From contig OZ024743.1 of assembly GCA_964016885.1 (NCBI GenBank), forward strand, positions 19,406,001-19,470,000: 64,000 nucleotides of DNA, read 5' to 3'. A program made the position numbers and the translations under genes. Source of the DNA: Eledone cirrhosa (Eukaryota). A model generated the notes under the pieces. That model was given only the letters and a program-made list of their open reading frames with translations. It made no database searches and had not been told where the DNA came from. Of this stretch, positions 1,606 to 54,488 are shown one piece after another; position 1 is the stretch's first letter; each line of letters opens with the position of its first letter.

Positions 1606-1812
1606 TACCACTAGCGTAGAGACAATCACAATATTTTTAGGATCAAAAATGTCACCCCAAAAGGGGTGAAATAAATTAACCCTAATGTCCGAAGACCCAG
1701 GCAAGGGGGTTAATTAACACAATAACGCAAGAATACAGGCACACACTTACTGTTAACCTGTAATATATCCAATAATCGACGAGCCGATGTGAAACACGTC
1801 TATACCATCCGG
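1..1812 (-). mobile_element. Tx1/L1-clade LINE copy A (5' part; runs off window start)
   Basis: ORF1 fragments homologous to copy D ORF1 (VLVQMQPERIARIPDRILLD, EGRRP, frameshifted CYLCGGRGHLRVAC knuckle); 5' end abuts (GATA)n at 1813. Confidence 0.85.
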
Positions 1813-2074: not shown

Positions 2075-5000
2075 CTACAGGCTTATAAACAGAGAAGGCC
2101 CAATCACCCGCGCCATTTTCGCTTCATTCACCCACCTTTCAGTAAATTTACTGGGGTGCAGTGCTCTCTCTCTCTCCACCCTGATTCTCCTTCTAAAGTG
2201 ATACTTAAAGAAGGGAATCAATTGTTGTCCGGAGAGAAAGGCATCTGTCCTCAGTCCTCTCAACCTCGTCCACCATATAACTTCTTTAACCATAGCCACC
2301 GTACAGAGGAAAACCGCCTCTCTTTCGTTTTTGAAAGAGGCTGGCGGTTTGATCTTTACTATGGACTCGGCAGTCAACTGGATTTGTCCCATACGCGACA
2401 GCAGTTGTTCTGCATAGTTCCACAGGTCGGTTACGCCCGGGCTGTGTACAATTGCGTGCAGGACTGTTTCAATGTCCTGCGTGCATCTTGGACACGTCCT
2501 CTTGCAAGGATCCCTGCCGGGGCGTCCGTGCCTGTAGATGTTGTCACGAACCAGTAGAGCTACTCGGTAGCACTGCCAGGCCAGTGACCCCTGGAAGTTG
2601 TCCATAGGTCCCGGGCGGAAAGTCCTACTAAACAGACTGGTGAGCTCATCGTCTTCGACACCCAGAGTCTCACCGAGCACGTCGTCACCCTTGTAACGTA
2701 CAATCCCTCTATAGAATGTCGAAGTGGAGTCTCCACTGATTGCTGCGCCCGCTTGCCAGAGGACTGTGAGCGCCTGAGCGAATTCAATGTGCCAGGCGCC
2801 CATCGTTTTCGGTCTTTTCTTGACCCAGGACTGCAGCTCCGTCAGCGAGACGAGCTGTGGGAAAGCCTGTCTCACAGACGGTGCCCACACCGGTTGGGGG
2901 TCGGTGAGGAATACCTGGAGCTGCCGCAGCCTCAGCGCATGTTTGCGCATCATCAGCCACGGCATACCCAGCCTTCCGTTGGAAGGGTGCTGACAGCAGA
3001 CGGATCTCCTCACCAGCGGAGCCTGCTTCTTCCACATAAACTGGAAGAGCATACGTTCTATCTTGGCGAGGTGTTCACGGGGACAAGGCACGACAGTCAA
3101 GCGGTAGTAGATGACGGACGCTATGAAAGTTTTCGCCACCTCCACTCGACCTTTCAAGGACATTTTGCACTCTGCCCACTTCTGGGTGAGTGCAAACACC
3201 TTGGCCGTGACCTCGTTCCAGTTTTTCTCCACCTGGATGTCTGGACCGAACCAGACCCCGAGCAATTTCACCGGTCCTTCCGTCCAAGCGTCCAACGACG
3301 TTGTCGGACGTCATCGGTTTGCCTCTCCACGTACCGAGTTGCAAACCGACAGACTTGTCCGGGTTTAGTTTTACTCCCGTCAGCGTTTCGTATTCTTTCA
3401 GTAAGGTGCCGATCACCCCGATTTCCGAGGTGCTCGACACCATTACCGTCATGTCGTCGGCATAAGCCAACGCAGCTTTGCGCAGTCCCGCAACAGCTCC
3501 AATTTCCGTAGTAGTGGCTCTGGAGTCAATACATTCAAAATGGAGGAGAGAGGGCACTCCTGTCGAATGGAACGTGTGATTGCGAACGGCTCCGATAGGT
3601 AGCCGTTCACCTTGACTCTCGAGCAGATGCTGGTGTGCATCGCTTCGATCTAGCCTCTGAACACGGGACCGAAACCGGCCGCCTTGAGAATGTCGTCGCT
3701 AGCACCTTGGCCAAAATCTTTAACTCTGTGTTGAGCAGAGTTATGGGGACTGAAGTTATTAATTTCGTCCCCCTTGTTCTCGTCTTTGCTGATCAGCGTT
3801 ACTATGCCCTTGCCTGCAGAACTTGTAATTCTACCGTTCTGCTGCCAATTGCAGTAGACGGCTTCGAGGACACCAGAGAACAAGTCCGGCATGCCTATGT
3901 AAACCTCGTAGGGTAGACCATCTAGACCGGGTGACTTGCGTTTCCCGCAGCGTCCCAGAGCGTCCCGTATTTCAGTGTCCGTGTTCGGTCTTTCGCAGAA
4001 CCTGGCGTCCGTGTTTGAGAGACGCGGCAGGCCGTCGAGGTATTAACTAAAATCCATTTCCTCGTTCGGCTCACCGTCGTTCTGCTCAAACAGTCGCGCA
4101 AAGTGCCGCTGAAACGCCGCGCACATTTGCTTGGGGTCAAGTGAAACGCGTCCGTTTTGGTCTTTCAAAGACCGAATCGTGGGTTTGTTGCCACTTTTTT
4201 CCTCCGCCACTCGGGCCCAGCTGACAGCTTTCGCTCCTTCGTTTCCTAGAGCACGTGATTTGCTTCTGACCACGCAGCCTTCGTGTTTCGCATCGAAGAA
4301 CTGGTCCAGTGCCGTTCTCGACGCTAACACTCTAGCGTTGTCACTTCTAGTGCCTCCTCTATCTTGGCTACTAGTTCTCTTTCTATTCTGTTTTTCTCTA
4401 AGGCTAACTCTCTGCTATACCCTATCGATTCTATCGATAGGGTATAGCAGAGAGTTGTCTACTGATCCGTTCACGATAAGCTTTACGTGCCGGCAACAAC
4501 ACGTTCAGCTTCCAGTATCCGGATCCATGTCTATGTATTCTATCACGGTTGACTAAGCAGACGACTAACTTGTGATCTCAATAGGCAACCATGTGCATTT
4601 GTGGACAGCTTAACATCACCTTGTGCCTTTCTCTAATGAAGAACCTATCTAGATACGATCTAGATGACCCGCTGCGGTTTGCCCACGTCCACTGTGGTGC
4701 AGTCGGAAATCCAGTCGATACCTATCGGCCAGTTGGAATTGGCCGATTAAAGTGTTGAGGCTGTTGCACCCCGCTCTACTGGGACATGCTCCCACATAGT
4801 CCCATCATGCATCTAGGATACCATTCCAGTCCCCCACTAAAAGTAAGGAGCGAGGCGTTCCCAGAAAAGACTCTAGACGCTTAAAGAAGTCTGGCCGCGA
4901 TTGCGATTGCCCGGTCGGGGCATAAACGGCCACCAGTCTGAAGGCTCCACCTCCAATACTGTTCACGTCTAGGACTACCAGTCTACCCTCCGGGTCCAAG

Positions 5001-5257: not shown

Positions 5258-5299
5258 GTTGGTGAAGAAAAGTTGGATAAAAAGGACGAAAAGTTGCAC

Positions 5300-7058
5300 T
5301 TACCTTTTCGTTTCCTGGAGATCGGGTTGTTCAATCTCCATTTCAGTTCTGGTGGGGCTGTTGAGTGAGGTGGGGAAACATTTTAATAGGACGCTGTTGA
5401 TGGGTGTCTGGCAGGGGTTGCCCACGTCCTGTGAAAAATTATGTTTTAGGTCACTATAGGTCTCTATAGAAACCCTTATAAGTTTAAGGTTTGGAGACGA
5501 TTCTGCCTTGACGAAAGTTTTGCCCTCCGTCTCCACCTTGGGGTTTTGGGAGATGACTTCCATCAAACTCTCGTTGTTTGTGTTGATGTATGCGTATTGT
5601 TGTTTGTGTTTTTGTTGTGTTGTTTTAGTTTGTTGTTCGTCCGAGAGTTTTCTTTTTATGGTGGGTGCTTGTTTTGGGGGTGGTGTTGGTGTTGGTTTTG
5701 CTGATAGGGGATGTTTGACTGTGGTGTTGTTTGTGTTGTTGTTTGTGTCTGTGGTTCTGTGTTGGTGTTGGTGATTGGAGTTTTTGGGGTTTTGTGGTGT
5801 CTCTTTTTTTGTTTTTTCGATTTCCGCGGCTCTCCCTGTTCTTCACTTAAAGAAGGAGAAGCAGCTTCATCCGTCGATGAATAATCATCGTCAGGTGTGT
5901 GAGGTAGGGGTATGTTGTGTGGTGGTGGTGTTTCGGTGTGTGTGTTTGTGGTAGTGTTTGATGGAGTGGGATGGAGTGGGGCTGTGTTGTTCAGTGGTGT
6001 TGTCTCTGTTTTTTCTGTTGTTGTTGGTTGAGTGTCTGTTTGTCTTGGTGTGGTTGCCCGTTTCGTCTGTCGTTGTACTTGTGGTGGTGGTGGTTGCTTT
6101 GTTGTTGGTGTTGGTAACAGTGTTTTCTTTTGTATTGTTTTGGTTGAGCGTGTTTGTAAAGGACAGGAGGCCTTTAGGTGTATGGTGATATTGCAACGAA
6201 AGCAATGTGGTTGTCGTCCCTCAACTACAATGTTTATGTGGCTGTTGTTGTCAACCATCACTTTTTCTGGTATTTTGGAGATATTTTCCAGGCTCATTTG
6301 CACCAGAATCTCCAAATTTGTACCAGACCAGGTGTGTCTTGTTGACTTTTTGATGGAGGGAATAGTGTCTTTTCTCTCCTTTAAAATTCCTGCCAATCTC
6401 CACCAAATATTAATATTTGGTGGTATGTTTGAAACTCTAATTTGTTGTGTCCTTTTTCCCATGTAGGCAAAAAGGTGTATTTTTGTGACAGTATTGGCGT
6501 CACTGAATATATTTGTGCAAGGGCCTCGCTTTTGAGGAGTACCGAAATACTCCCGTACTGTTTGGCCCCCTGCATAAAGTCAACGTCTGGCAATATCTGT
6601 ATTAAGGTTGCCTCAATTTCCCCTTGACTGAGGAATGCTGGTCTTTTTGTTTCATTTGAAACAGTTCTGAAGGTGATTCTCCTTTGAAATGTTTCCAGAC
6701 GAATTTCTGGGGTGAGTTTATCTGAAATCCCCCGTTTTCACCGAAAGTGATAAACTCCTTTGGTTCAGAGAGCATCTGTGTCGCATTGGAATCCGTGAAA
6801 TCTTGTGTCTTGGTGACTGTTTGCGCAAAAGTTTTTTTGGTGTTGTTGTTGTTGTTGTGGTGGTGGTTGTCGGGTTTTCCGTTTGTAGTTGTGTCAATGG
6901 TTTTATTTTCTGTTGTTTTTTCCGTCTGTTGTACTATGTGTGGTTCGATCTTGTTTTTATTTTTGTTGTTCATATTGGTTTCCATGGTGACGCCAATACA
7001 TGCGGAGGTAGAAGTAACGTTATTATTATTATTTGTGACTGTTTCTGTATAAGTTATT

Positions 7059-10538: not shown

Positions 10539-12420
10539 TCACTCACCCTTCGTCTCCTGGGGACCAGGCCGCACGGATTTCCATGGGGGTGTTAGAGGGG
10601 TTGTCTGGATGGGTGGTGGTTTCCGGTGGGGTGGGGACGGAGATGTTTGGTGGGGTGGGGTCTGGTGGGATGGGGGATCTGGGGTGGGGAGACAATTGAG
10701 AAGGACGCGGTTGAGTGGTTTCACGCAGGAATTCCCCACATCCTTCTCAAATGTTTCTTTTAGGGACCTATAAGTTTGTATAGGGACCCTAATCAGTTTT
10801 AGGTTCAGTTTTTTGCTATTTTTAATAGAGTGGGCGAAAGTTTTCCCTTCGGTTTTCACCGAAGGGTCGTTCGTGATGGTCTCCATTAGTGTTTTGTTTT
10901 CAGTGTTTATGTAAGTGTAAGTGTAATTTTCTTGTGTTGTGTTTGTTTTTGTCTGTAGTTCTTGTGTGTGCTTTCATTTTGTTGTAGGTATTTTGTTTTC
11001 AGGAGGTGGGGGGTTTTGTTTGTGATGTTTTTGTTGTTTGTGTTGCTGGTTGTATGTTTGTGGTAGTGTTTGCTGTTTTTTTGCTTTTGTGATGTATTTT
11101 CTTTCTTTTCGAGCGATGGGGTTCTCCCTCGTCTTCACTGGGTGATGGCGAGATAGCCCCATCTGTTGTATCGTCTGTGTGATTGGGGAGGGGTATGTCT
11201 TGGGGAGCTGTCCAGGAGTACACGTTATGGGATCATAGCTATTCGCTCTGGGCTCATTTGCACTAGAACTTCAATGCTAGTCCCATTGAATACATCTCTG
11301 GGGTACTTTCCTACTGACAGTATTCTGTCTTCATCAAAATTGATCAAGCCGCACAGTATCAACCATATGTTCAGCTTTGGTGTGACACTCGTGATTTTGA
11401 TCTTTTGTGTCCTTGTTCTCATGTCTCTATCTATCTAAGGCGGGTAAAATTCCCGAGATCCATGGACGAGTTCTCTCCAGCGGTCTCTGTCCCTCATTAT
11501 CGCTGCCATGTCCTGCGTCTCCAACAGTATACACTGAGGATGAAAAAACTCAGAGCTGTATGGGAGTATCCCAAGAGTCAGCTCAAAATTGACACAGAGG
11601 AGACTGAGGTTAGCTGGACATGCTCACCGACATCCAAAGTTTTCCCATGTATGTAGAGAAAAAGGTGTACATGTTCGGTACAATTGGCGACACAGTAATT
11701 TTGGGCCGTCAATTGATCCTTCATGAGTACCGAAATACTCCCAAAAGGTTTGCTTCTTTGAATGAATGCAATATCATTAATTGAATTTTTGAAAGCCAGT
11801 TCAATTTCTCTCTGTGACAATTGGACTGGTTTTCGGGTAGAATTGGAAACTGTCCTAAAAACTATCGTGTTGAGAGCAGTTTCCTTGCGAATTTCTACCG
11901 GAGAATTGATGCTGAAAGCACCATTTTTTTCGAAAGTGACATATCTCCTAGCGTCCTTTAAAAGTTATTCAGCATTTGTTATGTCGAGATATATCAGATC
12001 CTCCTTTTTTTTAACTGTCTCTGCAAAGGAGTATTTTGGTTTCTTTGTGGAATTATCCGTGTTGGTGGTGTTGTCATTATTGTTGTTATTGTTGTTGTTA
12101 TTATTGTTGTCACCGATGTTGATATTATTCGAATTTTCCTTGGTGTTGTTGTTGTCTTTGATGCTGCTGTTATTGGTGTTGTCTTTATTTTTTTCTTTGT
12201 TGTTGTTATCATTGTTGTTTTTATCATCATTATTGGTGTTGCTGTTAGTTTTGTTGTCATCGAACTGTTTGGTGTCATTTGTGTTGTTTGGATATGAATT
12301 TGTTTTTGCATTTTCATTTCGTCTTTCCATCTCTATAGTATCTAGTGAAGAAGACGTTGTTGACTGTGAGCTTTGTAGTCTTACCGCCTCTCCACCACCA
12401 TTATCGTTGGACGCAGCGTT
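10539..12420 (-). pseudogene. ORF1 of copy C; knuckle deleted, RTE fragment inserted
   Basis: Homology to D ORF1; deletion near 11210 removes EGRRP-CCHC; insertion 11425-11641; start approximate. Confidence 0.75.
11425..11641. mobile_element. short RTE-clade insertion with 5' inversion and 9-bp TSD
   Basis: Minus strand reads LLETQDMAAIMRDRDRWRELVHGSREFYPP* + TAGATAGA tail; plus strand 11543-11641 reads KNSELYGSIPRVSSKLTQRRLRLAGHAHRHP; flanks ttctcatgt / ttcccatgt. Confidence 0.8.
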
Positions 12421-12641
12421 GATAACGTAATCAAACTTTTACAATATTTTTTCCAAGATTCGACGGAGGAAAAAATTTTCAAACGGTTATTTCGCTCCTG
12501 TAGGGGCGAAAATGAGTTGACCCACCACTGAGGGTCCAGACGGGGGGTCAAGTTACACAATAATATAAAATTTAACTGAAAACTCACGTTTTTTTTCTTA
12601 CATAAATTAACGGAAACTTCTCCGCCAAGTTACACACGTCT

Positions 12642-12672
12642 GATAGAGAGAGAGATAGATAGATAGATAGAT

Positions 12673-12744
<72 letters not shown>
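12642..12744. repeat. (GATA)n between C 5' end and D 3' end
   Basis: tetranucleotide tract with GA/TA interruptions. Confidence 0.97.
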
Positions 12745-12746
<2 letters not shown>

Positions 12747-13012
12747 GTTTCTTTTATTTGCCACTAGGGCATCAAAAGTGGGACAAGTACAAAGGGGGGA
12801 GTTTACACAAAAAGGCGTCCTCAATAAGGAGGAGGCAATAACAAAATATAAAAATAAAATAAGATATAAAAAAAATTAAATTTTTAACAAAATCCTCAAT
12901 AGAGAGGAGGCGCCTTGGGGGGTCGCACCCCCCCCCCCCCGAAAAAAGTGTGCAACCCTTTTCCTCAGGAGCACAGAGAGGGGGTGCTCCCTCGTTCCTT
13001 CCTCTTTTCCAC

Positions 13013-16000
13013 CTACAGGCTTATGTAAAGAGAAGGCCCATTCACACGGGCCATTCTCGCCACTTTCACCCACCTTTCATAAAAACGGCTGGGATGCAGC
13101 ACCTCTCTCTCCATCCTGATCCTTCTTCCGAAATGATATCGGAAGAAACGGACCAGTTGTTGGCCAGAGAGAAAGGTGCCTGACCTCAGTCCTTTCAGAC
13201 GCGTCCACCATACAACCTCTTTCGCCATGGCTATTACGCACAGAAACACCGCCTCTGCTTCATCTTTGAAGGGGGGAGTCGGCTTGATCATTACAATAGA
13301 CTCGGTGGTCAACCGGATCGGTCCCACCCTTGACAGCAGTTGTTCGACATAGCCCCACAGATCGGCTACGCCCGAGCAGTGTACCAATGCGTGTGCAACG
13401 GTTTCCTCGTCGCACACGCATCTGGGACAGATCTTTTTGGCGGGGTCCCTACCCGGGCGCCAGTGTCTGTAGAGCCTTTCTCGAACGGGTAAAGCCCCTC
13501 GGTAGCACTGCCAGGCCAGGGACTTCTGGAAGTTGTCCATAGGTCCCGGGCTGAATGTCCTACCGAACAGGCTGGCCAGTTCGTCCTCCTCCATGTCTAG
13601 GGCTTCTCCGAGGGCGTCGTCGCACCTGCTGCGTACCAGCCCTCTATAGAATGTTGCGTTGGAGTCTCCACTGATAACCGGATCCGCCTGCCAGAGGGCG
13701 GTGAGCGCCTGGGCACACTCAGTGTGCCAGGCGCCCAGTTTTCTCGGTCTTTGCTTGACTCAGGATTGCAGCTCGGTGAGTGAGACGAGTCTGGGAAAGG
13801 TTCGTCTCACAAACGAGGCCCACACCGGTTGTCCGGTGAGGAATACGTAGAGGTGCCGTAGCCTTAATGCGTCTTTACGCATCATTAGCCACGGCATCCC
13901 CAGCCCTCCTTTCGAAGGGTGTTGACAGCAGATGGATCTCCTCACCATAGGAGCCCGCCTCTTCCAAAGGAATTGGAAGAGCGCGCGCTCCATCTTGGTG
14001 AGGGTTTCCCTTGGGCAGGGCACTACGGTCAGGCGGTAGTAGATGACGGACGCTATATAAGTGTTCGCCACCTCCGCCCGACCTTTCAGGGATAGTTTGC
14101 AACTGGCCCACTTCTGGGTCAGTGCAAACACCCTGTTCGTAACCTCCGCCCAGTTTTTCTCCACCTGGAGGTCCGGTCCGAACCAGACCCCGAGCAACTT
14201 CACCGGGCCCTCCGTCCAGCGTCCGACGACGCCATCAGAGGGCATCGGTCTGCCCCTCCACGTGCCGAGTTGCAAACCGATCGACTTGTCCCGGTTCAGC
14301 TTAGCCCCTGTGAACTTTTCGTACTCCTCCAGTAAGGTGCCGACCGCCTCGATTTCGGAGGCCGTCGACACCATTACTGTCACATCATCGGCGTAGGCTG
14401 ACACCGCTTTCCGCAATCCCGGTTCCAAAGGGATGCCCTGCAACAACTCCAACTTCCGCAGTAGTGGCTCGAGAGTCAACACATACAGAAGGGAGGAGAG
14501 AGGGCACCCTTGTCGGATGGACCGCGCGATTTTGAACGGCTCCGAGAGGTAGCCGTTCACCTTGACCCTAGAGCAGATGCGGCTGCTGTGCATAGCAGTG
14601 ATCCAGCCCCTGAAAACGGGTCCGAAGCCTGCCGCCGCTAGCACCGCATCCAGGTAACCATGGTCGACCCTATCGAACGCCTTAGATTGATCCAAGTTGA
14701 TCAGAGCCCCACCAAAGCCGGGTTCGTTCCCAACCCTCTCTATGATGTATCGCATGAGGTGGAGGTTGTCATGGATGGACCTGGACGGGATAGCGCATGT
14801 CTGCGCATCTCCCACCAGGTTGCCCACGACAAGCGCCAACCTCTTTGCTAGCACCTTGGCCAAAATCTGTAACTCTGTATTTAGCAGAGTTATGGGCCTG
14901 AAGTTACTTATTTCGTCCCCCTTGTTCTCGTCCTTCCTCACTAGCGTGACTACGCCCTTGGTCACAGTACAGGGAATTCTCCCGTTCTGTTGCCAGTTGC
15001 AGTAGACCGCCTCGAGGAGATCGGGGAACAAGTCCGGCATAGCTAGATATAATTCGTAAGGAAGACCATCGAGACCCGGGGATTTGCGTTTGCCGCATTG
15101 GCCCAGCACGTCCTCTATCTCAGCGGCCGAAATCGGCTCCTCGCAAGACTTCGCCTCCCTGTCCGAGAGGCGCGGCAGGCCGTCGAGGTATGGACCGAAG
15201 TCCACGTTTCCAACCGGCTCCCCGCCCTTCCCGAACAGTCGGGCAAAGTGCCTTTGAAAGGCCTCACACATCTGCTTAGGCTCAAGAATCGCCCGTCCAT
15301 CCAGGTCTCGCAAAGACCTGATGGTGGATTTAGTTCCACTGTTGGCCTCTGTCACGAGGGCCCAGCTAACAGCTTTGGCCCCCTCGTTCCCTAGAGCACG
15401 TATTTTACTTCGGACAACGCAGCCTTCGTGCTTCGCGTCGAAAAACTGGCTCAAAGCCGTTCTCGACGCTAGCACTCTGGCCACGTCGCCGCTTCTAATT
15501 GCCTCTTCTACTCTATCTATTAGCTCCCTTTCCTTCCTATTGCTATCCGCAGCTAGAACCTTACTAAATTCAATCGAGACTACTCTAATCTCTCTCTTTA
15601 GAGATACCCACCACCTGCTGTTGACGATCGCTCCAGTCAACCGTTCCTTAACTAACGTACTAATCCGATTCCTGTAGGCTCTACTTGCCGGCAAGGACAA
15701 GTTGAGCTTCCAGTAACCGGGGCCCTATCTATGAGTTCTGTCAAGGTTGACCATGCAGGTCACTAATTTGTGGTCTGAATAGCCAACCATGCGCATTTTT
15801 GGACAACTTAAAAAGTCCTTATCCTTAATTCTAACTAAGAACCTATCTAGGTACGACCTAGATGATCCGCTACGATTTGCCCAAGTCCAGGTTGGCGCAG
15901 TCGGAAAATCTAGTCGATATCTATCGGCCAGGTCAAATCGACCGATTAACCCTTTGAGGCTATTACACCCCTCTCTATCGGGGCAGGCCCCTACGTAGTC

Positions 16001-16450
16001 CCAGCGTGCATCTAGGATACCATTCCAGTCCCCCACTAATAGCAAGGAGCGGGACGTCCCTAGAAAAGTCTCCAGACGATGGAAGAAGTCCGGCCGCATT
16101 GACCCGAAGGGGCCGTAGGCGGCTACCAACCTAAACGCTCCGCCTTTACCACTGCCAAGGTCCAGAACCACTAGTCGACCCTCCGGGTCCAAATGTACCA
16201 TCTGTGTTGCGAGACCCAGATGTTTTTGCAGCAGAACGACAACTCCACCCCCACCTCCGGGCTGACAGAGAGATGCGTGCATCTCAAAGTCATCAAAGGT
16301 GGGGGCCAGCTGTCGCACGTTGCTGATCCGGGCCTCGCAAATAACCATCACATCTATACGTTGTGACCTGAGGTCATTTAGAAGCATTGCTTGCTTCCAA
16401 GTTGAGCCCAGGCCACGCGCATTTAAACAGCCTACTCCTAGCATAGCCAT
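13013..16450 (-). pseudogene. ORF2 of copy D (1145 aa if two stops are read through): APE-RT-CCHC
   Basis: ORFs 15725-16474, 13760-15700 and 13013-13594 share one frame; TAG at 15725-15727 (Gln/Arg codon in other copies), TGA at 13760-13762 (TGG elsewhere); QGCPLS, YADD, CPRC..ET..H...C. Confidence 0.93.
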
Positions 16451-16474
16451 GTTGGTGGTGAAGAGAAAAGGCAC

Positions 16475-18262
16475 TTACCTCTCTGCGTCCCGGGTATCGG
16501 GCTGCACAATTTCCATTAGGGTGGGGGATGGGTTGTTGGGTGGGGTGGTGGTTTGTGGAAGTGTGGGGGCATCAGTGTGTTGTGTGGTTGGGGAGCTTGG
16601 AGTTGTGAGGGTGTTTGGGGAGGGGGTGGGATAGTTTTTTAGGAGGACGCGGTTAATGGGCCCGACGCAGGGGGGACCCACGTCCTCTTTAAAATTGTTT
16701 TTTAAAGTTTTATAGGTGTCCTGTGGGGCCTTAATCATTTTGAGGTGGGGGAAATCCCCTGCCTGGGTGAAGTTAGGCCCTTGTGTTTTTATTAGATTGT
16801 TGTTGTACACAATGTTTAACAGTTTTTTGTTTCTTGTATTTATGTATGTGTATGCATGTTTTTGTTTTTGTGTGGTGTTTTTTGTTTGCTGTTGTGAGCT
16901 CTTTTGTGTTGGTGTCAGTGTTATGTTTTGGGGAGGGTTTTTTTTCATTTGTGTGTCTGAGGTGTGTTTTCTTTTTTTTCTTTTGATTGTGTGGAAGTGC
17001 TCCTCCTCGTCTGACGACGAACTAGGCTCATCTTCCGCGTTGGAGGGGAGGGGTATATTTTCGGGTTGTGTTTGCGGTACGGGTGTTTTGGAAATTGTTT
17101 TTGTTTTTTGAGTGGAGGGGATGGGTTGGACATTGTTTTGTTTTGGTTTGAGCTGTGGTGGTTGTTTTTGTAGTGGTAGTTGTGGTGATTGTGTTGGATG
17201 TGCAGTTGTTGGTGGTGTAGGCAGGATTGGGGTTTTCTTATTAAGTTGGGGACAGACAGCCCTCAGGTGACCTCTGGTTCCGCAGAGGTAACACGAGGGC
17301 CGTCTACCCTCAACGGTAATGTTGATGAAGGTTAGATCATCCAGTATGACGCGTTCAGGGATCTGGGCGATCCTTTCGGGCCTCATTTGAACTACAAGTT
17401 CGAGGCTCGTTCCACTGAACGCGTCACCCGATGCCTTTCCCATGGACACCAGCATGTCATCCTCCAGGTCCAGAAAACCTGTCAAAACCCACCATATGTC
17501 CATAATCGGCAGGATGGTGTGGATTTTTATTTTTTGTGTTCTTCTACCCATGTACGTAGGGTAGAAGGTGTATGCGGTGGATGTGATTGGTTTGATGGAC
17601 AGTTTCACTGCTGTGTCCCTGTCCTTCATGAGAATGGATAGACTCCCGTAGAGTCTATCCTTCTGAATGAAGGTGATGTCCTTCATGACGTCTTTTAAAA
17701 CCAGCTCTATCTCGCTCTGTGATGGTTGAGCTGGTTTTTTACTTTTGTTCGAGATTGTCCTAAACATGACCGTGTTTAGGAGTCTCTGGCTTTTTAGTTC
17801 CGGGGGGGAATGGATTGTGAATGAACCATTTTCCCCGTACACTATATATGTTTTCGCATCCGCCAGTAGCTCCTTCGCTTTTGTTATATCTACTGGCAGA
17901 TAGTCGAGGGTTTTCCTTGTCGTCTCGGCGAAGGAGAAATTTTGTTTGTTTGTGTTGTTGTTGTCGTTGGTGGTGTTGTTGTTATCATTGTTGTTGTTGT
18001 CACCGTTATTGGTCTTGTTGTTGTTATTGTTATTGTTATTGGTGTTGCTTTCGTCCGTCGCATTGTTGTTGTTGTTGCTCTTGCTGCTGGTTCTTTGGGT
18101 TGTTGCCATGGCAACGTCAAGTTGTCGGTTAACAGGTGGAGAGAATTCTTCCTCTGGCTGACCTATCTTCTTGACCTCTGCTACTGTGACAGTGGCAGGG
18201 GGAAGCTGTAAGTTCATCTTCCCCTTTCCTCCTTCGAATTTTGGTGAAGAAGCTTCGGCCAT
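16475..18262 (-). CDS. intact ORF1 protein (595 aa) with single CCHC zinc knuckle
   Basis: Open from ATG to TAA; EGRRPSCYLCGTRGHLRAVCP; poly-Asn N-terminal region; basic KRKKRK segment. Confidence 0.88.
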   Translation of the reverse strand: MAEASSPKFEGGKGKMNLQLPPATVTVAEVKKIGQPEEEFSPPVNRQLDVAMATTQRTSSKSNNNNNATDESNTNNNNNNNNKTNNGDNNNNDNNNTTNDNNNTNKQNFSFAETTRKTLDYLPVDITKAKELLADAKTYIVYGENGSFTIHSPPELKSQRLLNTVMFRTISNKSKKPAQPSQSEIELVLKDVMKDITFIQKDRLYGSLSILMKDRDTAVKLSIKPITSTAYTFYPTYMGRRTQKIKIHTILPIMDIWWVLTGFLDLEDDMLVSMGKASGDAFSGTSLELVVQMRPERIAQIPERVILDDLTFINITVEGRRPSCYLCGTRGHLRAVCPQLNKKTPILPTPPTTAHPTQSPQLPLQKQPPQLKPKQNNVQPIPSTQKTKTISKTPVPQTQPENIPLPSNAEDEPSSSSDEEEHFHTIKRKKRKHTSDTQMKKNPPQNITLTPTQKSSQQQTKNTTQKQKHAYTYINTRNKKLLNIVYNNNLIKTQGPNFTQAGDFPHLKMIKAPQDTYKTLKNNFKEDVGPPCVGPINRVLLKNYPTPSPNTLTTPSSPTTQHTDAPTLPQTTTPPNNPSPTLMEIVQPDTRDAER

Positions 18263-18470
18263 TTAAAAAATATTGACTTTTCAACAAGAAAAAACTTTTT
18301 TTTTAACTATTTCGCCTAAAGGCGTAGAATATTTTGAGAGACTGACCAGATCAAAGTTTGACCTGGCAGTCCCTCTACAAAATGGTACAAAAATTAAAGT
18401 TATCAGACAAGAATTTCTATAGAAATTTAAACAGAACTTACTCAGCAAGTTATACGCGTGTGTCCATCCC

Positions 18471-18576
<106 letters not shown>

Positions 18577-21329
18577 GGATATTTTCTTACTCCTTTTAAG
18601 ATTAACTAAGATGAACAAAGATGAAAACTGAAATGCTGTTACATGATTTAAAATTGAGGTTTTGTACTATATATTTATATTCATATTCGATGTTTCTTAG
18701 TTAATGTAATTCTATGATTTATAGTTTACTCTTAACCTAGAATATTTCATGAGAAAATCATGCTATGCTATTATTTCTCATTGTTTTATATATCTTGTTC
18801 TGAAAATGGTGTCAATTAAAATTGATGATATCCTTGCTGACGATTGACTTGATAATACTTTAAAACCAGTCGCAATATCTATTATTTGATAATTTCTTTT
18901 GGGAATATCATTATCCACATAATCTTAGTCCATATGTTAATCTCTGAATTCAATATTATCCCCACCATCTATATATTACGTCACATTACTCTCATTATCA
19001 ATTAACTGGGAATATTTGTTTTTCCTCGTTTGACCGATTAATATTGACAAAAATCTCCGCCTACGATCTAAAGTAAATGTTCCACCATTATACCTGTGTA
19101 AATAACTAGCAACAACAATTTTTTAAATCAACAGAAAACACTAACTGTGCACTAATCAATCGAGTATAGAAACAACTTCGTTAAATTGTATTTAGAAGGG
19201 ATTTGATTCCGAACGTATTTGTAATATCGTTGAATAATGCATATAACTGTACTAAAATTCGCATCTCTTCCATATCATAGCGAGGATCCTTCTTAATTTC
19301 CAGTCTGTAGTGTACTATGTATATTGTCAAATTGCGTCATTGGTATTTGCTACTGCAACTAGCAGCAAAGAAGCTCCAGAATGACACTATTCACATTTGT
19401 AAACACCAAGTTCGGCAAACAGTTTTCGAATGTTTAGTTATTTGGGATGCCATTGAACAATCTGAAGAGTTTAGACATGACGCTTCTTAGTACTACATCA
19501 GGCTATTTACCAAGACATGATTCAGTCATATAGCTAAGTTATGCACACGAATACGATCGATTAAGGGAATGAGAAAATAATTTCACTTAATTTAAAATCA
19601 TTCTTGGACAATACTTTTTCTTTTACTTGAAATTGATCCATCCGTATTTTTCTGCTTCGCCAAGGAAGAAGACGTAGCGACTACGACCATTCTAGGGCTT
19701 GCTAGAACTATATGAGGAAGATAAAAGTTTTTCTCTATGCACCAAAGAGTCAGGTCGGGGTTTGAAACCGGGTATTTACAGATTAATTCTACAAAATAAG
19801 AAGGGTAAAGCGTGATTTAAACTTAGAGCGAAGGGAGTCATAATATATAACGGAAGGCCACTTGGCCGACGCCCTAACAAATCTGCCAGTTCAACCATCT
19901 TAACTGACAGTAATGATGTTATTTGAGCTCAAAGCACAGAGATTTGAACGAAATATCCATAGCATTCTTTATTTAGTGAATGAAGAATTGTTGCTTTCAA
20001 TGAATTGTAGTTTTTCTGTTTAAAGATATCTGCTACCAAGATATCAGTAACGCAGCATTTTAGCTATATCCATAATATTTTGGCTATTCGTATCCTGTGC
20101 TGAAGCATATCCAATATATATTCTAAGGTCTGTGACCTTATGTACATTTGTCAAATAGAAACAAGCAGAAACCCGAGTATCGGGAGGTACACCACCCATA
20201 GAAACAAAATCATTTTTAGAAAGTGTGGACATCAGTGTACCCAGAATCATTCATACATTCAAATATTGCGAAAAGGTCGGGGATACTCACATAGATATTT
20301 GAAGAGAGCTTTTATTCTCTCGATCACCAATGAATCAATATCTGTGTTAGATATGTAAAAAGACGTTTGGAAAGAAAGTAGTGAAAACCTCTAAGATGAA
20401 AGCCTACCTTGAACCAATATCTTTACATAACAAAAAGACAAAATGAATACCACATACACTTGGAGAGGATATTGTTATACCAGCTGTTATGAAGAACGTC
20501 TCTGAAACTATTCTTAATGTCATTCCTATGACTAGTAATGCAATGAAATGCCGTATTTATAAAACCACACGTGTTGTAAAGAGAATGGTTTCATATCTTA
20601 AGCAATATGAGAGTTTAACGTATCGAAATTCTCTATAGAAATTACTGCAATCCTAGTGTAAAATGCATTGATGAGGAATTTCCTTTTGCTTAAATCTGAA
20701 AGGATCTTCATTTAACGTTTAAGAGGTCTTGATACTATATGCCATTCCATTGTGATATTTGCTTCTGCCATACATGAGAGCAAGGCTAGTGTGTTAAATT
20801 TGCCAATGTATTAAATCTACTACTCAAGTATATAATAGTGTATTCGGAACACCGTTCGCATATATCGTGAATTTTTCGGTAAAACATATTGTTAAAGCAA
20901 TTTCTAAAAGAAGGAAAATGGAAAGGTAAATATTGTAATCTAAGCCTCTTGTGATTATAAGTAGGATATTGCAATAGTATGAGAAAATGAGACAGTGGAA
21001 AATATGTTATTCTGAAATGATGGATGGGTGAGAATACTGGACATACAAAGGGACGAATATTGTAAATTATGTATTAGATATATAGTTGTAATAGTAATTA
21101 ATTCGTACACTTGTACATGTAAAGGCAAAATTTGGAAAATCCAAAAAGTGAATAAATATTGTAACAAAATAATTGGTAGCTAACACAAGATACTGATTCT
21201 TATTTTATATGCATGTTTCTGCGCGTATATGTGTTTGTATTAAATTATGCAGTCTAAATTCTGTTCAAGGTCGTGAGATTAATGTTCATTTCAAATAATT
21301 AACGATCCCCATATGGTGCTTATATCTAT

Positions 21330-36526: not shown

Positions 36527-36560
36527 GTTGAAATGGAGTGGAAAAGATGGGAAAGACCAC

Positions 36561-38488
36561 TTACCTTACTTCTCGTAGAGGAAGGATGGTTTGCCTATCC
36601 TTTGCACTGCTTGTGGCCTCCTCCGGAAGGATGTCCTTATAAATCCTCCTGGAGAGTGTTTGTCGGAAGTCTCCGATGTCTTTGGGGAATTGTTGTTTTA
36701 GTGTCGTGTACGTTTTCTGTGCGATGCGAGTGATTTGAATGTGTGGAGGTGGTGTTCACTTTGGGGTTGTTGTGTAGTCTTTTTATGTGATGCTGGTGTT
36801 GTGTTGCATGTAGTGTAATAATTGGTTGTTGTTCAAATTTAATGCTGTGTAGTGTGTATCGTTTTGGTTGTTTTGTTTTGTTTGCGTTTGTTGTGGGTTT
36901 GTTTCTGTTACGCTTTTTGGTGACTTTTGTGGTGTTGGTGATGGTGGTGTTGGGGTTAATGATGGTGAACTGTTGGTGTTTGTGGTGATGGGGTTGGTGA
37001 TGCTGGTGTGGATGGTGGCATACCTGTCTTAACTTTCTTGTTCGATAATTTATTTGTTTCCCTCTGTATTTTGTTTTTGGAGGGGGAAGGAAGAGAATTT
37101 TTTCTTTTTTGGTTTCTTTTTTTTCTTTTTTCCTGATACTCGTTGTCACAATCTGTCTCCAGTTGCGATAAGCTGGGGAGTGGAAAATCCTCCACAGGCG
37201 TTGGGTTTGGTTGTGGTGTGGTGGATGGTGTAGGCGCTGGTGCTAGTTCTGGGGCGTTGAGTGGTGGTGGTGTTGCTTTTGCTACTGTTGCTGGGGTTGT
37301 TACTGTTACAGTTGCTTCTGTTGTTGCTGCTACAGTTGTTGCTGCCATTTCTGCTGCTGGTGGTGTTGATCGTTGAGTCACTGGGGTGGGTAAGAGACGT
37401 GGCCCCAACCTTTTAACCTCCTGATGGCAGAAAGCCCCTAGGTGGGTACTTCACCACAAACGACAAACCTAGGTCTTCTGCCCTCGACGATTACGGTGAG
37501 GTGGCGCCGTCAGTGAGGTCTATTACCTCTGGGATCTCCTCAATGCTTTTATGGTCCGCTTGGATCAGGAGCTCCATCCCAGATCCGCACCAGTTTTGCT
37601 ATTTCCATTTTGTTTTGCTATTTCTGTTATTTTGGTGTTGGCCTCGATGCCAGCGAGGACGGCAGCCATTAGCCAGGGAATTTCGATGGCTGGTGGAACG
37701 TGGGTCACCCTGATCTTCACAAGTCTCTGGCCACAATAGCTTGGGATGAGTGTGAAGTCGCCACTTCTTAATGGGGCCATGGAGTGTTCTCTAGCCTCCT
37801 GTGGTGTTTCAAAGAACACGCCCACGGTTCCATACTTCTGCCCACGTCTGATGTGGGGTTTTTTTGCCCACACATGTCCCAAAGCTTTTTGGATTTGGGA
37901 CTCGGATGCCCGTTCCACTCGGCGCGATTTTATGTTAATTGTCCGATAAGATACGGTGCATAGGCGACGTTGCTCCATTTGATTAGGTGATGGGTGAGGC
38001 TGACCCTGTACTCATCTTTCTTTACCATTCCTTTGGCTTCTTCTAATTCATCCTGAGTTACCTGGATCGCTTCGCACGTTTTTGCTACTCTGACAAAACT
38101 CAGGGTAGTTTTCTTAATTTCATTGTTGCTGTTGTTGTTATCGTTATTTTTGCTATTGTTAATTTTAGTTTCAGTTGTGGTGGTGTGGCGTCAGTGGTGT
38201 TCGGTGTGGAAGAGTTCATTTTGGTTGAATTCATTTCAATATCACCAGTTAATTTATTTTTTTCTTTTGTTTCTGTTGTCGCTGTGGTGGTGGTCGGGGT
38301 GGTGGTGGTGGTGGCGGGTTAACACCTGCAGTCATTGGTAATGGCGGGAAATGAACGTCTACCTGAGACTATTTTAAAATAGTGCTAATGCTTACAATTC
38401 CAGTGTTGGCAAACGTAGCAATATTTACAATGGTGTTGTCGGTGTGAGGTGTTGGATTGTGAGGAAGGAGTGACTCTGAGTCATCCAT
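36561..38488 (-). pseudogene. ORF1 of copy E
   Basis: Frameshifted homologue of G ORF1 (YRTINIKSRRVERASESQIQKAL). Confidence 0.82.
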
Positions 38489-41700: not shown

Positions 41701-42932
41701 ACATTCGGAGAGTAAGGATCGTATTAACATCAAAGCTTAACAGTAGGAATGCCATAAGTGCAGTAAATTCCCGAGCTGTGTCTATTATTAGGTACAGTGC
41801 GTGAATTCTGAGATGGAATGTTGATGAACAAAAAGAAATGGATAGGAAGACTAGGAAGCTATTGACTATCTACAACATGTTCCACAAGAGGAGTGATGTT
41901 GATAGACTCTACTTAAGGAGATCTGAGGGTTGAAGAGGTCTTATCAGCATAGAGGACTGTGTTCATATGGAGAAAAACAACCTACACAAATACGTGACTG
42001 ATAGTAAGGAGCCAATGCTCAGAATTGTACTGAAGGAGAGGACAATAGACCAGGGGATGTCCAAGGAGGAAATAACAACAAGGAGAAAGAGCAGCCTTCA
42101 TGAAAAATCCCTACATAGTACCTTCTTTGAGAAAACTGAATTCAGAGATCCACAGACATGGAACTGGTTGAAAAGAGGAGTCCTTAAAAAGGGGACACAA
42201 GGAATGCTAATGGCTGCGCAAGAGCTGGGACTCAAAACGAAGTGGCTGAAACACCATATTTACAAGGAGGAGGCTAGCCCACTGTGCAGGATCTGTGGAG
42301 AGAGAGAGAGGAGACTGTGGCTCACATTGTATCCGAGTGTAAATACCTAGCGCAGACTCACTATAAAGACTGGAGACATGATGTGATAGGCAGGGTGATC
42401 CACTGTCACCTATGCAAAGTAAACAATTTACCACATTCTGAGAAGTGGTATGATCATAAGCCATAGTCGGTGATAGAAAACGATCAGGTGAAGGTGCTAT
42501 GGGATTTTAGGATACAGACGGACAAGAAATTGGAACACAATAGGCCTGACCTGGTTGTTTTGGACAATGAAAAAAGATCGTGCCTGATTGTAGATGTAGC
42601 CTGCCCATTTGACACGAGATTGCTAGAAAAGGAGAGGGAGAAAATTAACCGATACCAGGGCTTAAAGTGGGAGGTAAAAAGGATTTGGAACTGCCATGAA
42701 GTCAGAGTCATCCCGATTATCATAGGCGCACTAGGTACTATCTCAAAGAGTTTCCAAGGATGGTTAAAGAAAATTTGTCCAGCCCCGCCTTTTGGAAAAC
42801 TTCAAAAGGCATGCTTGCTGGGAACAGCAAGAACCCTCCGATACGTTCTGAATATCTGAGGCTGCATGTAGTGGCTTGATATTCATTTCAACACACTTTC
42901 CAGTTAAATAACATCAATGAATGAGACTCAAA

Positions 42933-46494: not shown

Positions 46495-48059
46495 ACTTTC
46501 CTTGATCGTGTGGCGAAGGGACAGTAGAACCGTCTCTTTGGCTGGTCATGGGTGTTTCCAAGAGGATGTCGGTGTATATCCTCTTGGTAACCGACGCTCT
46601 GAAGTCTCCAACTGCGTTGGTGAATTTTTGTTTTAAAAGTTTGTAATGTTCTATTGAGATTTCAATGGTAATTATGTTTGTCGGCAGAGTTCTTGGTGTG
46701 GGTTGGGTGTAGTAGTTTTTTTCTGTGAAGTTTATGGGTGTATACTTTTTGGGGAGAGGGGTGATTTTGTTGCTGTTTTCTTGTTGTTGCTGTTGGGTGT
46801 GTGTGTGTTTTGTTGTGTTTGCGATGTTGGTGTTTTTGGTGATGCTGGTGGTGGTGTGGTTGTTGTTGGTGGTGATGCCTGTGGTGGTGAGGGTGATGGT
46901 GGTGGTGTTGCTGCAAGTCTCCTTGCAGCCTTTACCCCTCTTTGTTTGCCTTCACTTTTGGAGGGTGAAGCTAAGGGGTTTTTCCTCTATTGTTTCTTGT
47001 GGCAGACCGTTTGCCACTTCCCCCCGCTTCATACTCCATGTCAGATTCCGTGGCACCTGGGAGCGGTATGAGCTCCTGCTGCTGATGGTGGTGGTAGTGG
47101 AGACCGCACCGGCAATTTTGCCGCCGGTGTGGCTACTGCGACTGTTGGTGTTGCCGCCACTGCTGCCGCTGCTTTAGTTGTCCGTGGCCTTGGTATGGGT
47201 GCCACGGACGTTGCCCTCCTACTCACCATGGAAGGTTCTTCTGTCTCTGTTGCTTGCCCTGCTCTTGGCGTCGGAAGGAGGGCCCTCTTCTTGGCTGCTT
47301 CTGCGGGCAGAAGGAGCTGAGGTGACCCTTCTGCCCACAGAGATAGCACTTTGAGCGCCTTCCTTCCACGCTTATATGGAGTTGACGCCCTTCTTCGAGG
47401 ACCATGATGCCTGGGATAGCCTCGATTCACTCCTGGTCAGTCTGTATTAGCATGCCTAATCCTGACCAGTTCTCTCTACCCATTCTCTGTATTTGCAGTA
47501 TGGTGGTCTTCTCCTCGATTCCAGCCAGTATAGACGCGGCCAGCCAAGTTATGGGTACGTCGAGTGGGACCTGGGTCACGTTGACACTCACAATTTTCTG
47601 CCCGCAGTAGGAGGGCACCAAGACTATGTACTCACTCTTTAGGGTTTCCAAAGTGTGAGACTTCGCCTCTTGGCGAGGTGGCGAAAAGTACGTCTACTGG
47701 GGCGTACTTTTTGCCTTGGGTGATGTGGGTTTTGTTGGTTATGTTTTTTGTGCTACCGTTGTTGTTTTCGGTGCAATGTGTATTGTTGTTGTTGCAGTTG
47801 TCATTGTTTATTTTCTTGTTAGTGATGTTAATATCGTTGTTGCATTTGTTGTCATTTTTTTCTGTTGTCTGTATTTTGGTTGACGCTGTCATGTTTGTAG
47901 TTGGTGTGGTCAATTTTTTTAATTCGTGTTCTCAGTGTTGTCTTTATTCACGTTGTTTGTGGTGGTGTTTGTTGTATGAATTTCACTAACCTTCCTCTCA
48001 ACTTTTACGCCGTTGTCACACGACAGCAGACATATTGCTGGGAGGCGTGTCTCAGCCAT
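46495..48059 (-). pseudogene. ORF1 of copy F with internal deletion
   Basis: EGRRSKCYLCGQKGHLSSFCP knuckle; PSYCGQ motif as in E/G. Confidence 0.78.
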
Positions 48060-52195: not shown

Positions 52196-52229
52196 GTTGA
52201 AAAGGAGTGGAAAAGATGGGAAAGACCAC

Positions 52230-54243
52230 TTACCTTACTTCTCGTAGGGGAAGGACGGTTTTTCCATCCTTTTCACTGCTTGTGGCCTCCTCAGGAAGGA
52301 TGTCCTTATAAATCCTCCTGGAGAGTGCTTGTCGGAAGTCTCCGATGTCTTTGGGGAATTTTTGTTTTAGTGTCATGTACGTTTTCTGTGTGATGCGAGT
52401 GATTTGAATGTGTGGAGGTGGTGTGAATTTTGAGGTTGTTGTGTAGTCTTTTTCTGTGATGCTGGTGTGGTGTTGGATGTAGTGTAATAATTGCTTGTTG
52501 TTCAAATTTAATGCTGTGTAGTGTGTATCGTTTTGGTTGTTTTGTTTTGTTTGTTGTGGGTTTGTTTCTGTTTCGCATTTTGGTGACTTTTGTGATGTAG
52601 GTGATGGTGGTGTTGGGGTTAATGATGGTGATGGTGTTGGTGTTTGGGTTGATGGGGTTGGTGATGCTGGTGTGGATGGTGGCATATCTGTCCTAACTTT
52701 TTTGTTTCTTAATTTATTTGTTTCCCTCTGTATTTTGTTTTTGGAGGGGGAAGGAAGAGAATTTTTTCTTTTTTGGTTTCTTTTTTTTTTCCGGATATCG
52801 TTTCCCACTCCTCGTCGTCACAATCTGTCTCCAGTTGTGATAGGCCGGGGAGTGGAAAATCCTCCACAGGCGTTGGTTTTGGTTGTGGCGTGGTGGATGG
52901 TGTAGGCGCTGGTGCTAGTTCTGAAGCGTTGGGTGGTGTTGGTGTTGGTTTTGTTGGTGGTGGTGGTGGTGTTGGTTTTGCTACTGTTGCTGGGGTTGTT
53001 GCCGTTATAGTTGCTTCTGTTGTTGCTGCTACAGTTGTTGCTGCCATCTCTGCTACTGGTGGTGTTGATGGTTGTGTCACTGGGGTGGGTAGGAGAGGTG
53101 GCCTCAACCTTTTAGCCTGAGGGCAGAAAGCCCTTAGGTGGGTTCCTTCACCACAAACGACACACCTAGGTCTTCTGCCCTCGACAATTACCGTGAGGTG
53201 GCTGCCATCAGTGAAGTATATTACCTCTGGGATCTCCTCAATGCTTTTTTGGTCCGCTTGGATCAGGAGCTCCATCCCAGATCCGGACCAGTTCTCCTGC
53301 TTTTCTTTTGCTATTGCTATTATTTTTGTGTTGGCTTCGATGCCGGCGAGGACGGCCGCTATTAGCCAGGGAATTTCGATGGCCGGTGGAACGTGGGTCA
53401 CCCTGATCTTTACGAGTCTCTGGCCACAATAGCTTGGGACGAGTGTGAAGTCGTCACTTCTTAATGGGGCCATGGAGTGTTCTCTAGCCTCCTGTGGTGT
53501 TTCAAAGAACACGCCCATGGTTCCATACTTCTGCCCACGTCTGATGTGGGGTTTTTTTGCCCACACATGTCCCAAAGCTTTTTGGATTTGGGACTCGGAT
53601 GCCCGTTCCACTCGGCGCGATTTTACATTTATTGTTCGATACGACACGGTGCATAGGCGCCGATGCTCCATTTTATTAGGTGGGGGGTTAGGCTGACCCT
53701 GTACCCATCTTTCTTTACCATTGGTTTGGCATTTTCTAAATCCTCCTGAATTACCGTAAATGCTTCGAACTGTTTTGCTACTCTGGCGAAACTGAGGGTC
53801 GATTTTATAATGTCATTGTTGTTGTTGTTGCTATCGTTATTTGTGTTAATATTAATTTTAGTTTCAGTTGTGGTGGTGGTGACGTCAGTCGTCTTTGGTG
53901 GGGAAGAGTCCATTTTGCTTGATTTCATTTCGACATCACGAGTTAATTTATTTTTTTCTTCTTTTGTTTCTGTTGTCGCGGTGGTGGTGGGGGTGGGGGT
54001 TGTGGCGGTGGTGGTGGGGGTGGGGGTTGTCGCGGTGGTGGTGGTGGTGGAGGCTTTAACACCTGCAGTCATTGGTAATGGCGGGAAATGAATGTCTGCC
54101 TGAGACAAATTTAAAATATTGCTAGTGCTTATATTTTTTTTAGTGTTGGCAAACGTAGTAACATTTACAATGGTGGTGTCGGTGTGAGGTATTAATTTGT
54201 GAGAAAGGCTTTCAGCTGCTTGGTGCAGAGGTGAATTAGCCAT
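52230..54243 (-). pseudogene. ORF1 of copy G (two frameshifts)
   Basis: Overlapping ORFs 53629-54243, 52709-53671, 52230-52808; EGRRPRCVVCGEGTHLRAFCP. Confidence 0.85.
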
Positions 54244-54453
54244 TTTTTTTTCAAAGAAATTTTATGATAATAATATAAGTTAAAATTTTGGGCACAAGGC
54301 CCCAATCATTTTGGGTGTCCTTTTCGGAAAACAATGTATGTGCGCTTATATATGGTTAACAATAAAAATTTTCCATAAATGGCAATTTTTAACAAACGGA
54401 AATAACAAACCTTTGCGGAGCTCACGATAATACGATTTACTACGTAGGTCGCC

Positions 54454-54485
<32 letters not shown>
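54454..54485. repeat. (AAT)n between G 5' end and Dong2
   Basis: direct reading. Confidence 0.95.

Positions 54486-54487
<2 letters not shown>

Positions 54488-54488
<1 letters not shown>

Follow-up and report, generated by a model that had tools for sequence, protein, structure and literature searches.

In the long terminal repeat (LTR) retrotransposon copia, an intron of ~3 kb covers POL and is spliced out to give a Gag-only RNA (Yoshioka 1990, cited in PMC5580714), and in the Arabidopsis element EVD splicing and termination both depend on a conserved U1 site, according to the portions of PMC5580714 considered here. We describe an arrangement that may work along similar lines in long interspersed nuclear elements (LINEs) of Eledone cirrhosa. 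The elements lie in a 64,000-nt stretch of assembly GCA_964016885.1 (contig OZ024743.1, positions 19,406,001 to 19,470,000 of the forward strand; hereafter the window), where seven LINE copies, A to G, occupy the minus strand among GATA and AAT arrays; the genome measures 3.0 Gb. An earlier note on this DNA had proposed that a conserved 5' splice donor overlaps the stop codon of open reading frame 1 (ORF1) in these copies, and that ORF2 may be an intron. The donor signal stands; excision of ORF2 is left without a matching trace, as no precise ORF2-less copy was found in the tested families.

The layout is similar to that of the copia subgenomic Gag RNA as described in PMC5580714, in that a ~3-kb intron across the enzyme region would yield an RNA for the structural protein only. 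It differs in that copia is an LTR element with a single ORF and demonstrated splicing, whereas the present elements are two-ORF LINEs with a putative donor seated on the ORF1 stop; their two-ORF, non-LTR layout places them outside the Ty1/copia Gag system, though they may work alike. With EVD and the Ty1/Copia shGAG strategy, as the same portions of PMC5580714 present them, they share a conserved U1 site at the border between structural and enzyme regions and a donor that matters more than the acceptor, and the EVD site has non-splicing as well as splicing roles. However, the EVD intron is short and coupled to premature termination, and its splicing creates a stop codon (PMC5580714), whereas in the LINEs the stop is already present in unspliced RNA and ORF2 holds few poly(A) hexamers. 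Human L1, in the passages of PMC5860796 used here, resembles them as an L1-superfamily RNA with donors in the 5' untranslated region (UTR), which are functional in human L1; the events behind its SpIREs are confined to the 5' UTR or join the 5' UTR to ORF1 and leave spliced copies, none of which were found here, and those passages name no donor at the ORF1 stop. The Dictyostelium element TRE5-A.2 is comparable in that it keeps only ORF1 of a two-ORF non-LTR element, together with the native 3' end, but what is given of it in PMC3159450 identifies it as a DNA deletion derivative copied in trans rather than a splice isoform, and no family of that kind was found here. The Tx1 elements Kibi and Koshi share the two ORFs, an endonuclease-reverse transcriptase (RT) ORF2 and insertion into microsatellites (PMC4494074); the targets here, GATA, AAT and a 66-nt repeat, are unlike theirs, and the sections of PMC4494074 on which we draw report no splice signal for them.

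A literature search, with subscription papers and Repbase reports outside its coverage, returned no description of an ORF1-stop donor in Tx1 elements. Splice sites have reportedly been found in zebrafish L2 LINEs. We regard a donor on the ORF1 stop of LINEs as a variant of a known LTR-element strategy, in which the splicing step itself is putative.

The donor-like motif at the ORF1 stop codon

The donor consensus recognised by U1 is AG/GTRAGT, where the slash marks the cut. All six junctions between ORF1 and ORF2 in the window carry a corresponding motif on the minus strand at the coordinates first reported for them, followed in each case by a pyrimidine tract and the ORF2 ATG (Table 1). Copies of the F family elsewhere have an intact AAG/GTAAGT, so the window F copy is a point mutant. 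The spacer behind the motif has a pyrimidine fraction of 0.75-0.92 in 12 families, with an AG ahead of the ATG in 3 of the 12, and the distance from motif to ATG ranges from 25 to 52 nt.

Further copies were collected from DNA near known copies, from loci matching an ORF2-start pattern, from loci found with an outside protein and from 40 full-length regions. The ORF2-start pattern has 4428 matches in the genome, the first 30 of which were analysed; it was derived from families already seen, so the sample represents one radiation in one genome. Family representatives are mostly 67-90% identical in ORF2, the interrupted copy that represents family I aside; this copy was omitted from the ranking of GT sites and the synonymous-site analysis. 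The K representative has no usable 3' end, and old copies with a mutated donor (L225, L236 and L238) were excluded from the family junction table. The junction alignment was anchored on G/GTRR, which fixes five positions by construction and leaves -2, +5, +6 and the register with the ORF1 stop free. Two metagenome scans for related loci found none.

A motif of the G/GTRRGT type overlaps the ORF1 stop or lies directly 5' of it in all 12 family representatives. From -2 to +6, each position is shared by 10-12 of the 12, compared with 7 of 12 at -3 and +7, and none of the 43 flanking positions (27 upstream and 16 downstream) is conserved in 11 or more; the motif is thus more conserved than its neighbours, which bears out the expectation of the earlier note. 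At the unforced positions, A is found at -2 in 11/12 families, G at +5 in 11/12 and T at +6 in 12/12, and in the sole family without the +5 G the motif is preceded by CAG. The variants, GTAAGT, GTGAGT and GTAGGT, all fall within the donor consensus. The stop codon, be it TAA, TGA or TAG, lies inside the motif in eight families (phase 2) and one codon later in four (phase 1); intact C, F, I and I2 copies read Gly-Lys/Glu-stop, with the stop one codon past the hexamer. On two well-supported ORF2 trees the codon phase shifted at least three times with the motif retained. The signal is therefore conserved across 12 families, two codon phases and three stop codons, with conservation confined to the U1 footprint, and its survival through these changes argues that it acts at the nucleotide level.

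The same picture was obtained in the wider sample, where G/GTRR is present at 30/30 and full GTRRGT at 28/30 of the ORF2-start-pattern loci, and G/GTAAGT at 29/30 of the loci found with an outside protein. The context is rare elsewhere in the elements, being shared by 19 of 2077 other stop-like triplets. When GT sites were ranked by complementarity to U1, the junction site came within the top 1-8 of 260-311 sites per element in 10/10 families. The site has GT at +1/+2 and matches the consensus from -2 to +6, the standard being the general consensus and not the host U1 sequence, and a cut at this point leaves ORF1 whole. Taken together, the conservation data suggest that the motif is probably a functional site recognised by U1.

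ORF2 as a candidate optional intron

The reading that we favour, tentatively and at somewhat less than an even chance, is that ORF2 is an optional intron, excised in part of the transcripts to leave an ORF1-only mRNA. From the motif, its conservation, its register with the stop codon and the arrangement at the ORF2 end we infer that U1 small nuclear ribonucleoprotein would bind the donor consensus at the ORF1 stop, and that part of the transcripts would be spliced from there to an AG at the extreme 3' end of ORF2. Removal of ORF2 would give an mRNA encoding ORF1 protein alone, while unspliced RNA would serve both for ORF2 translation and as template for new copies; the purpose would be an oversupply of ORF1 protein, comparable to that of Gag in copia and EVD. 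The excess of ORF1 over ORF2 protein in two-ORF LINEs is usually ascribed to inefficient re-initiation on a single RNA. What the conserved donor on the ORF1 stop suggests instead is regulation at the level of RNA, of the kind known from copia-type LTR elements, and if the reading is correct a non-LTR element has reached the copia strategy independently. Extended to the whole LINE radiation, with a 3.4-kb ORF2 as optional intron, the donor on the ORF1 stop and the acceptor on the ORF2 stop, the proposal is possible but again falls a little short of probable. Even without splicing, the strong donors of thousands of copies could cut into host transcripts; family G by itself has 1099 exact junctions.

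For the acceptor, the earlier note had pointed to the ORF2 end, and its observations there are reproduced: the ORF2 end reads CTGTAG/GT in B (2075) and D (13013), while in E and G, where the stop is TAA, AAAG/GTGG follows 7 nt further on. The G stop lies at 48789-48787, so that this copy has no TAG acceptor. The AAAG/GTGG of E and G is present but poor in acceptor quality, having no adjacent pyrimidine tract and, judged by eye, entailing a long ORF1 extension. Across the families, TAG closes ORF2 in 10 of the 11 that have a 3' end; the AG is preceded by a moderate tract of 8-11 pyrimidines in 14 bases and followed by 30 bases that are 70-93% purine, and AATAAA lies ~200-270 nt past the ORF2 end.

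If the donor were joined to this TAG, ORF1 would stop within two codons in its own phase in eight of ten families (A, C, D, F, H, I, I2 and J); B would run for 26 codons and C2 for 28-33. The wrong-frame control gives a stop within two codons in 3/20 (Fisher p 0.001 if independent, though the families are related). The window D copy lacks the phase-matched stop, which is present in 5/5 other D copies and in 1/3 A copies. Through an AG 7-13 nt upstream, in the ORF2 frame, B, C2 and G would reach a stop in 2-4 codons. The phase-matched stops hint at an acceptor at the ORF2 end, and on the optional-intron reading the post-acceptor stop would have shifted frame together with the donor, at the 3' side in the A/D/H/J clade and at the 5' side in C.

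The sequence after the ORF2 stop in window D is a minority form; the other full-length D copies read CTATAG/GTGAGG (5/5). More generally, the 3' end of the window copy (12746-13040) differs from that of the five other D copies, the remainder being ~98-99% identical, which suggests that recombination between families may lie behind it. Six C/C2 copies (L177, L179, L182, L184, L185 and L187) share a 7-nt deletion, lying between two AGs, that takes out the ORF2 stop and is likely due to microhomology or to descent within a single sub-lineage.

Fully conserved synonymous sites are common in ORF2, at 15-42% by amino acid. Internal candidate acceptors at ORF2 nucleotides ~409, 1835 and 2801 are conserved in 9-10 of 10 families and were set aside, as they are not synonymous outliers. 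A separate stretch, codons 526-534 in L156 numbering (TELKILAKV, in the RT domain), has unusually conserved synonymous sites in 10 families, with a score of 4.43 compared with 3.79 for the 99th percentile of shuffles; an RNA or DNA signal, or gene conversion, is a possible cause.

Spliced copies and competing explanations

Several results weigh against the optional-intron reading. Probes were designed to detect an ORF1 end not followed by the donor or a 3' UTR not preceded by ORF2; they covered A, D, G and H with both nearby AGs and C and C2 with the TAG only, leaving out B, F, J and K, and the I/I2 design was unable to match an ORF2-end join. The D probes gave 3, 6 and 2 matches, all point changes or small indels; the A/D probe gave two, both at known indel sites; the G probe gave one, a micro-inversion, as against the 1099 normal junctions; the C/C2 probe gave 12, all local changes; and the H probe gave none. 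None of 30 A loci selected on their ORF1 sequence had lost ORF2 precisely, the deletions in L046 missing both sites, and all 201 collected copies run through the donor into ORF2, although most had been chosen by ORF2 or junction queries. These absences count because ORF2-less LINE RNA can be copied in trans elsewhere, as with TRE5-A.2 (parts of PMC3159450); Tx1 likely mobilises SINEU too, according to parts of PMC4494074. The missing copies argue against abundant germline splicing, while rare, somatic or poorly copied isoforms would still be compatible with them. At the acceptor side, the phase match traces to ~3 independent origins and the choice among nearby AGs was made afterwards; the TAG is lost in G/E, a very active family, and B and C2 mismatch at the TAG; the synonymous sites of the ORF2 end are not conservation outliers in 10 families, and a clear branch point, looked for by eye, was not seen. 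All families, moreover, belong to the single radiation sampled. Among the 15 listed of 256 joints in four contig sets of unidentified kind, none linked the donor of D to its ORF2 end. Run X4, which compared with X1 was deeper over ORF1 and the 3' UTR than over ORF2, counts neither for nor against splicing, as contig depth cannot rank the parts.

The 5' UTR is a further point in this balance. Families A, C, D, I, I2 and J carry a GTRAGT at a distance of 30-100 nt from the 5' end, and inspection by eye adds B and H; it was also seen in copies L159, L163, L172, L221 and L224. The D site opens an intron-like stretch of 67 nt that ends in TTTTGTAG, and among an uncounted number of D copies that reach the 5' end none was found to lack this stretch. 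An acceptor-like AG follows only in some families (D, J and B). Donors that are kept without a conserved acceptor indicate that donor-like sites can persist unpaired, which also tells against ORF2 excision. In bivalves, at least 6 of 29 L1-Tx1 consensus starts, namely the first 29 of 223 places in supplement file 25 of PMC10294476, have GTRAGT or AG/GTAAGA in the first ~280 letters (by eye, with no chance control); molluscan Tx1 elements may generally have a donor in the 5' UTR.

The 5' UTR sites support the alternative that the motif binds U1 and is rarely or never spliced inside the element, aiding transcription, blocking premature 3' ends or governing nuclear fate; any splicing would then use neighbouring or host acceptors. 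A second GTRAGT near the 5' end of most families, often without an acceptor, fits this account, as does the failure to find spliced copies for either donor site. Several AATAAA/ATTAAA hexamers in ORF1, with one of them placed ~250-350 nt ahead of the donor in 8 of 11 families, point the same way, and the EVD U1 site blocks premature termination, as the cited portions of PMC5580714 have it. However, ORF2 contains no AATAAA/ATTAAA in A, C, C2, D, G, H and window B, and 0-3 in others, which leaves little for U1 to protect downstream of the donor; the suggestion in the earlier note that U1 might prevent premature polyadenylation loses some force for this reason. The exact siting at the ORF1 stop and the phase-matched stops are also left unexplained, and on balance we consider binding of this unspliced kind unlikely, although a serious contender.

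Rather more doubtful is that the motif has nothing to do with U1 and is a termination/re-initiation signal for ORF2, or an inherited block kept by chance together with a stop codon. On the usual view L1 ORF2 is produced by re-initiation; the families are related, with the ORF2 identity and the frequency of conserved synonymous sites given above, the stop codon dictates TRR in phase-2 families, and the spliced product was not found. Against this, the stop shifts relative to the motif at least three times and the motif stays, conservation has sharp edges at -2 and +6 while the coding and spacer flanks vary, the distance to the ATG varies, and the variable bases from +7 would argue against a fixed rRNA-pairing motif.

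Splicing of the 5' UTR donor to the pyrimidine tract before the ORF2 ATG, which would give an ORF2-only mRNA and make the ORF1-stop motif incidental or regulatory, is very improbable. It can draw on human L1, where 5' UTR donors are used in splicing and spliced copies result (parts of PMC5860796), and on K, which has CTAAC, a long pyrimidine tract and TAG right before the ATG; AG before the ATG also occurs in C, C2 and some I-group copies. Among the 12 representatives, though, only three have it, and RNA coding for ORF2 should leave copies, of which none were found for I2. The least credible option is a mini-intron that begins at the donor and ends at the first AG close to the ORF2 start, dropping the stop and fusing ORF1 to ORF2: the first AG in A, B, D and G does fall in a codon for Ser or Arg, in a phase that would fuse the frames, but AGR is common for Arg in these ORF2s (29/64 conserved columns), the frame misfits in C, I2 and related I copies, no such deletion copies occurred in the A, D, G or H probes, and an intron of ~34-54 nt is likely below the minimum size.

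Element D, its class and neighbouring copies

Table 1. Features on the minus strand of the window, in window coordinates; a slash marks the putative cut.
Feature	Position	Strand	Remarks
Element D	12746..18472	-	full-length two-ORF LINE, L1/Tx1 kind; between GATA arrays 12642-12745 and 18473-18581
D 5' UTR donor-like GTAAGT	18436..18441	-	then T-rich tract and TTTTGTAG ending 18375
D ORF1	16475..18262	-	595 aa; single CCHC knuckle aa 324-337; stop TAA 16477-16475
D donor-like GAG/GTAAGT	16473..16481	-	hexamer 16478-16473; phase 2; last exon base would be 16479
D pyrimidine-rich spacer	16451..16472	-	upstream of ORF2 ATG
D ORF2	13013..16450	-	endonuclease, RT, zf-RVT; candidate intron
D candidate acceptor	13013..13040	-	pyrimidine-rich final ORF2 codons and TAG stop (13015-13013); second AG 7 nt upstream
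D 3' UTR	12746..13012	-	purine-rich start; AATAAA 12758-12753; candidate terminal exon
A 5' UTR donor-like GTAAGT	1745..1750	-
B ORF2 stop TAG	2075..2077	-	candidate acceptor
B donor-like AAG/GTAAGT	5298..5306	-	at ORF1 stop; hexamer 5303-5298
C donor-like AGG/GTGAGT	10541..10549	-	hexamer 10546-10541; phase 1 in intact C copies
C 5' UTR donor-like GTGAGT	12582..12587	-
E donor-like AAG/GTAAGT	36559..36567	-	hexamer 36564-36559
F junction AAG/GAAAGT	46495..46503	-	hexamer 46500-46495
G donor-like AAG/GTAAGT	52228..52236	-	hexamer 52233-52228

Element D belongs to a young family with at least 1419 candidate loci in the genome, and the junction region is ~99% identical across 30 fetched D loci. 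The window copy has two private in-frame stops in ORF2 (15727-15725 and 13762-13760); families G and I2 have many intact ORF2s. Pfam matches of D ORF2 are Exo_endo_phos and RVT_1, with zf-RVT slightly below cut-off, and a narrow comparison of its RT with solved structures put human L1 ORF2p closest (E 1e-44), ahead of R2 (E 1e-18). Of 32 homologous proteins obtained for this ORF2, none was a named Tx1 reference; the closest named homolog of this ORF2 is from Argonauta hians (60%), and the atlas neighbours of ORF1 are zf-CCHC and ZCCHC3-like clusters. GATA or AAT arrays adjoin the window copies and most fetched full-length copies, and repeat targeting is a Tx1 trait in the account of PMC4494074 drawn on here. 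The ORF2 domains, RT, CCHC knuckle and repeat targets fit Tx1, a label that is based on these features and not on a tree with reference elements.

Element A was ruled out as an ORF1-only copy, its ORF2 continuing past the window start, where the element has its own AG/GTAAGT junction followed by ORF2. Family H (L156, L157) sits in a ~66-nt tandem repeat and not in a microsatellite, and forms head-to-tail arrays. In family I2, ~10 tandem copies with 5.84-kb spacing occur at G000:C1:423365218-423418069, several of them with an intact 1150-aa ORF2 frame.

The plus strand of the window carries LINE-like copies of another kind among the Tx1 copies, at 38989-42658, 56583-60090 and 54431-55915, with RT-like frames; the first two are 87-91% alike, and AAT or GAA arrays adjoin the plus-strand copies. 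A hairpin-like CCC-TATT-GGG/GAG recurs, by eye, upstream of the T-rich tract in the 3' UTRs of all families (~12830-12890 in the window) and is a candidate RT recognition signal.

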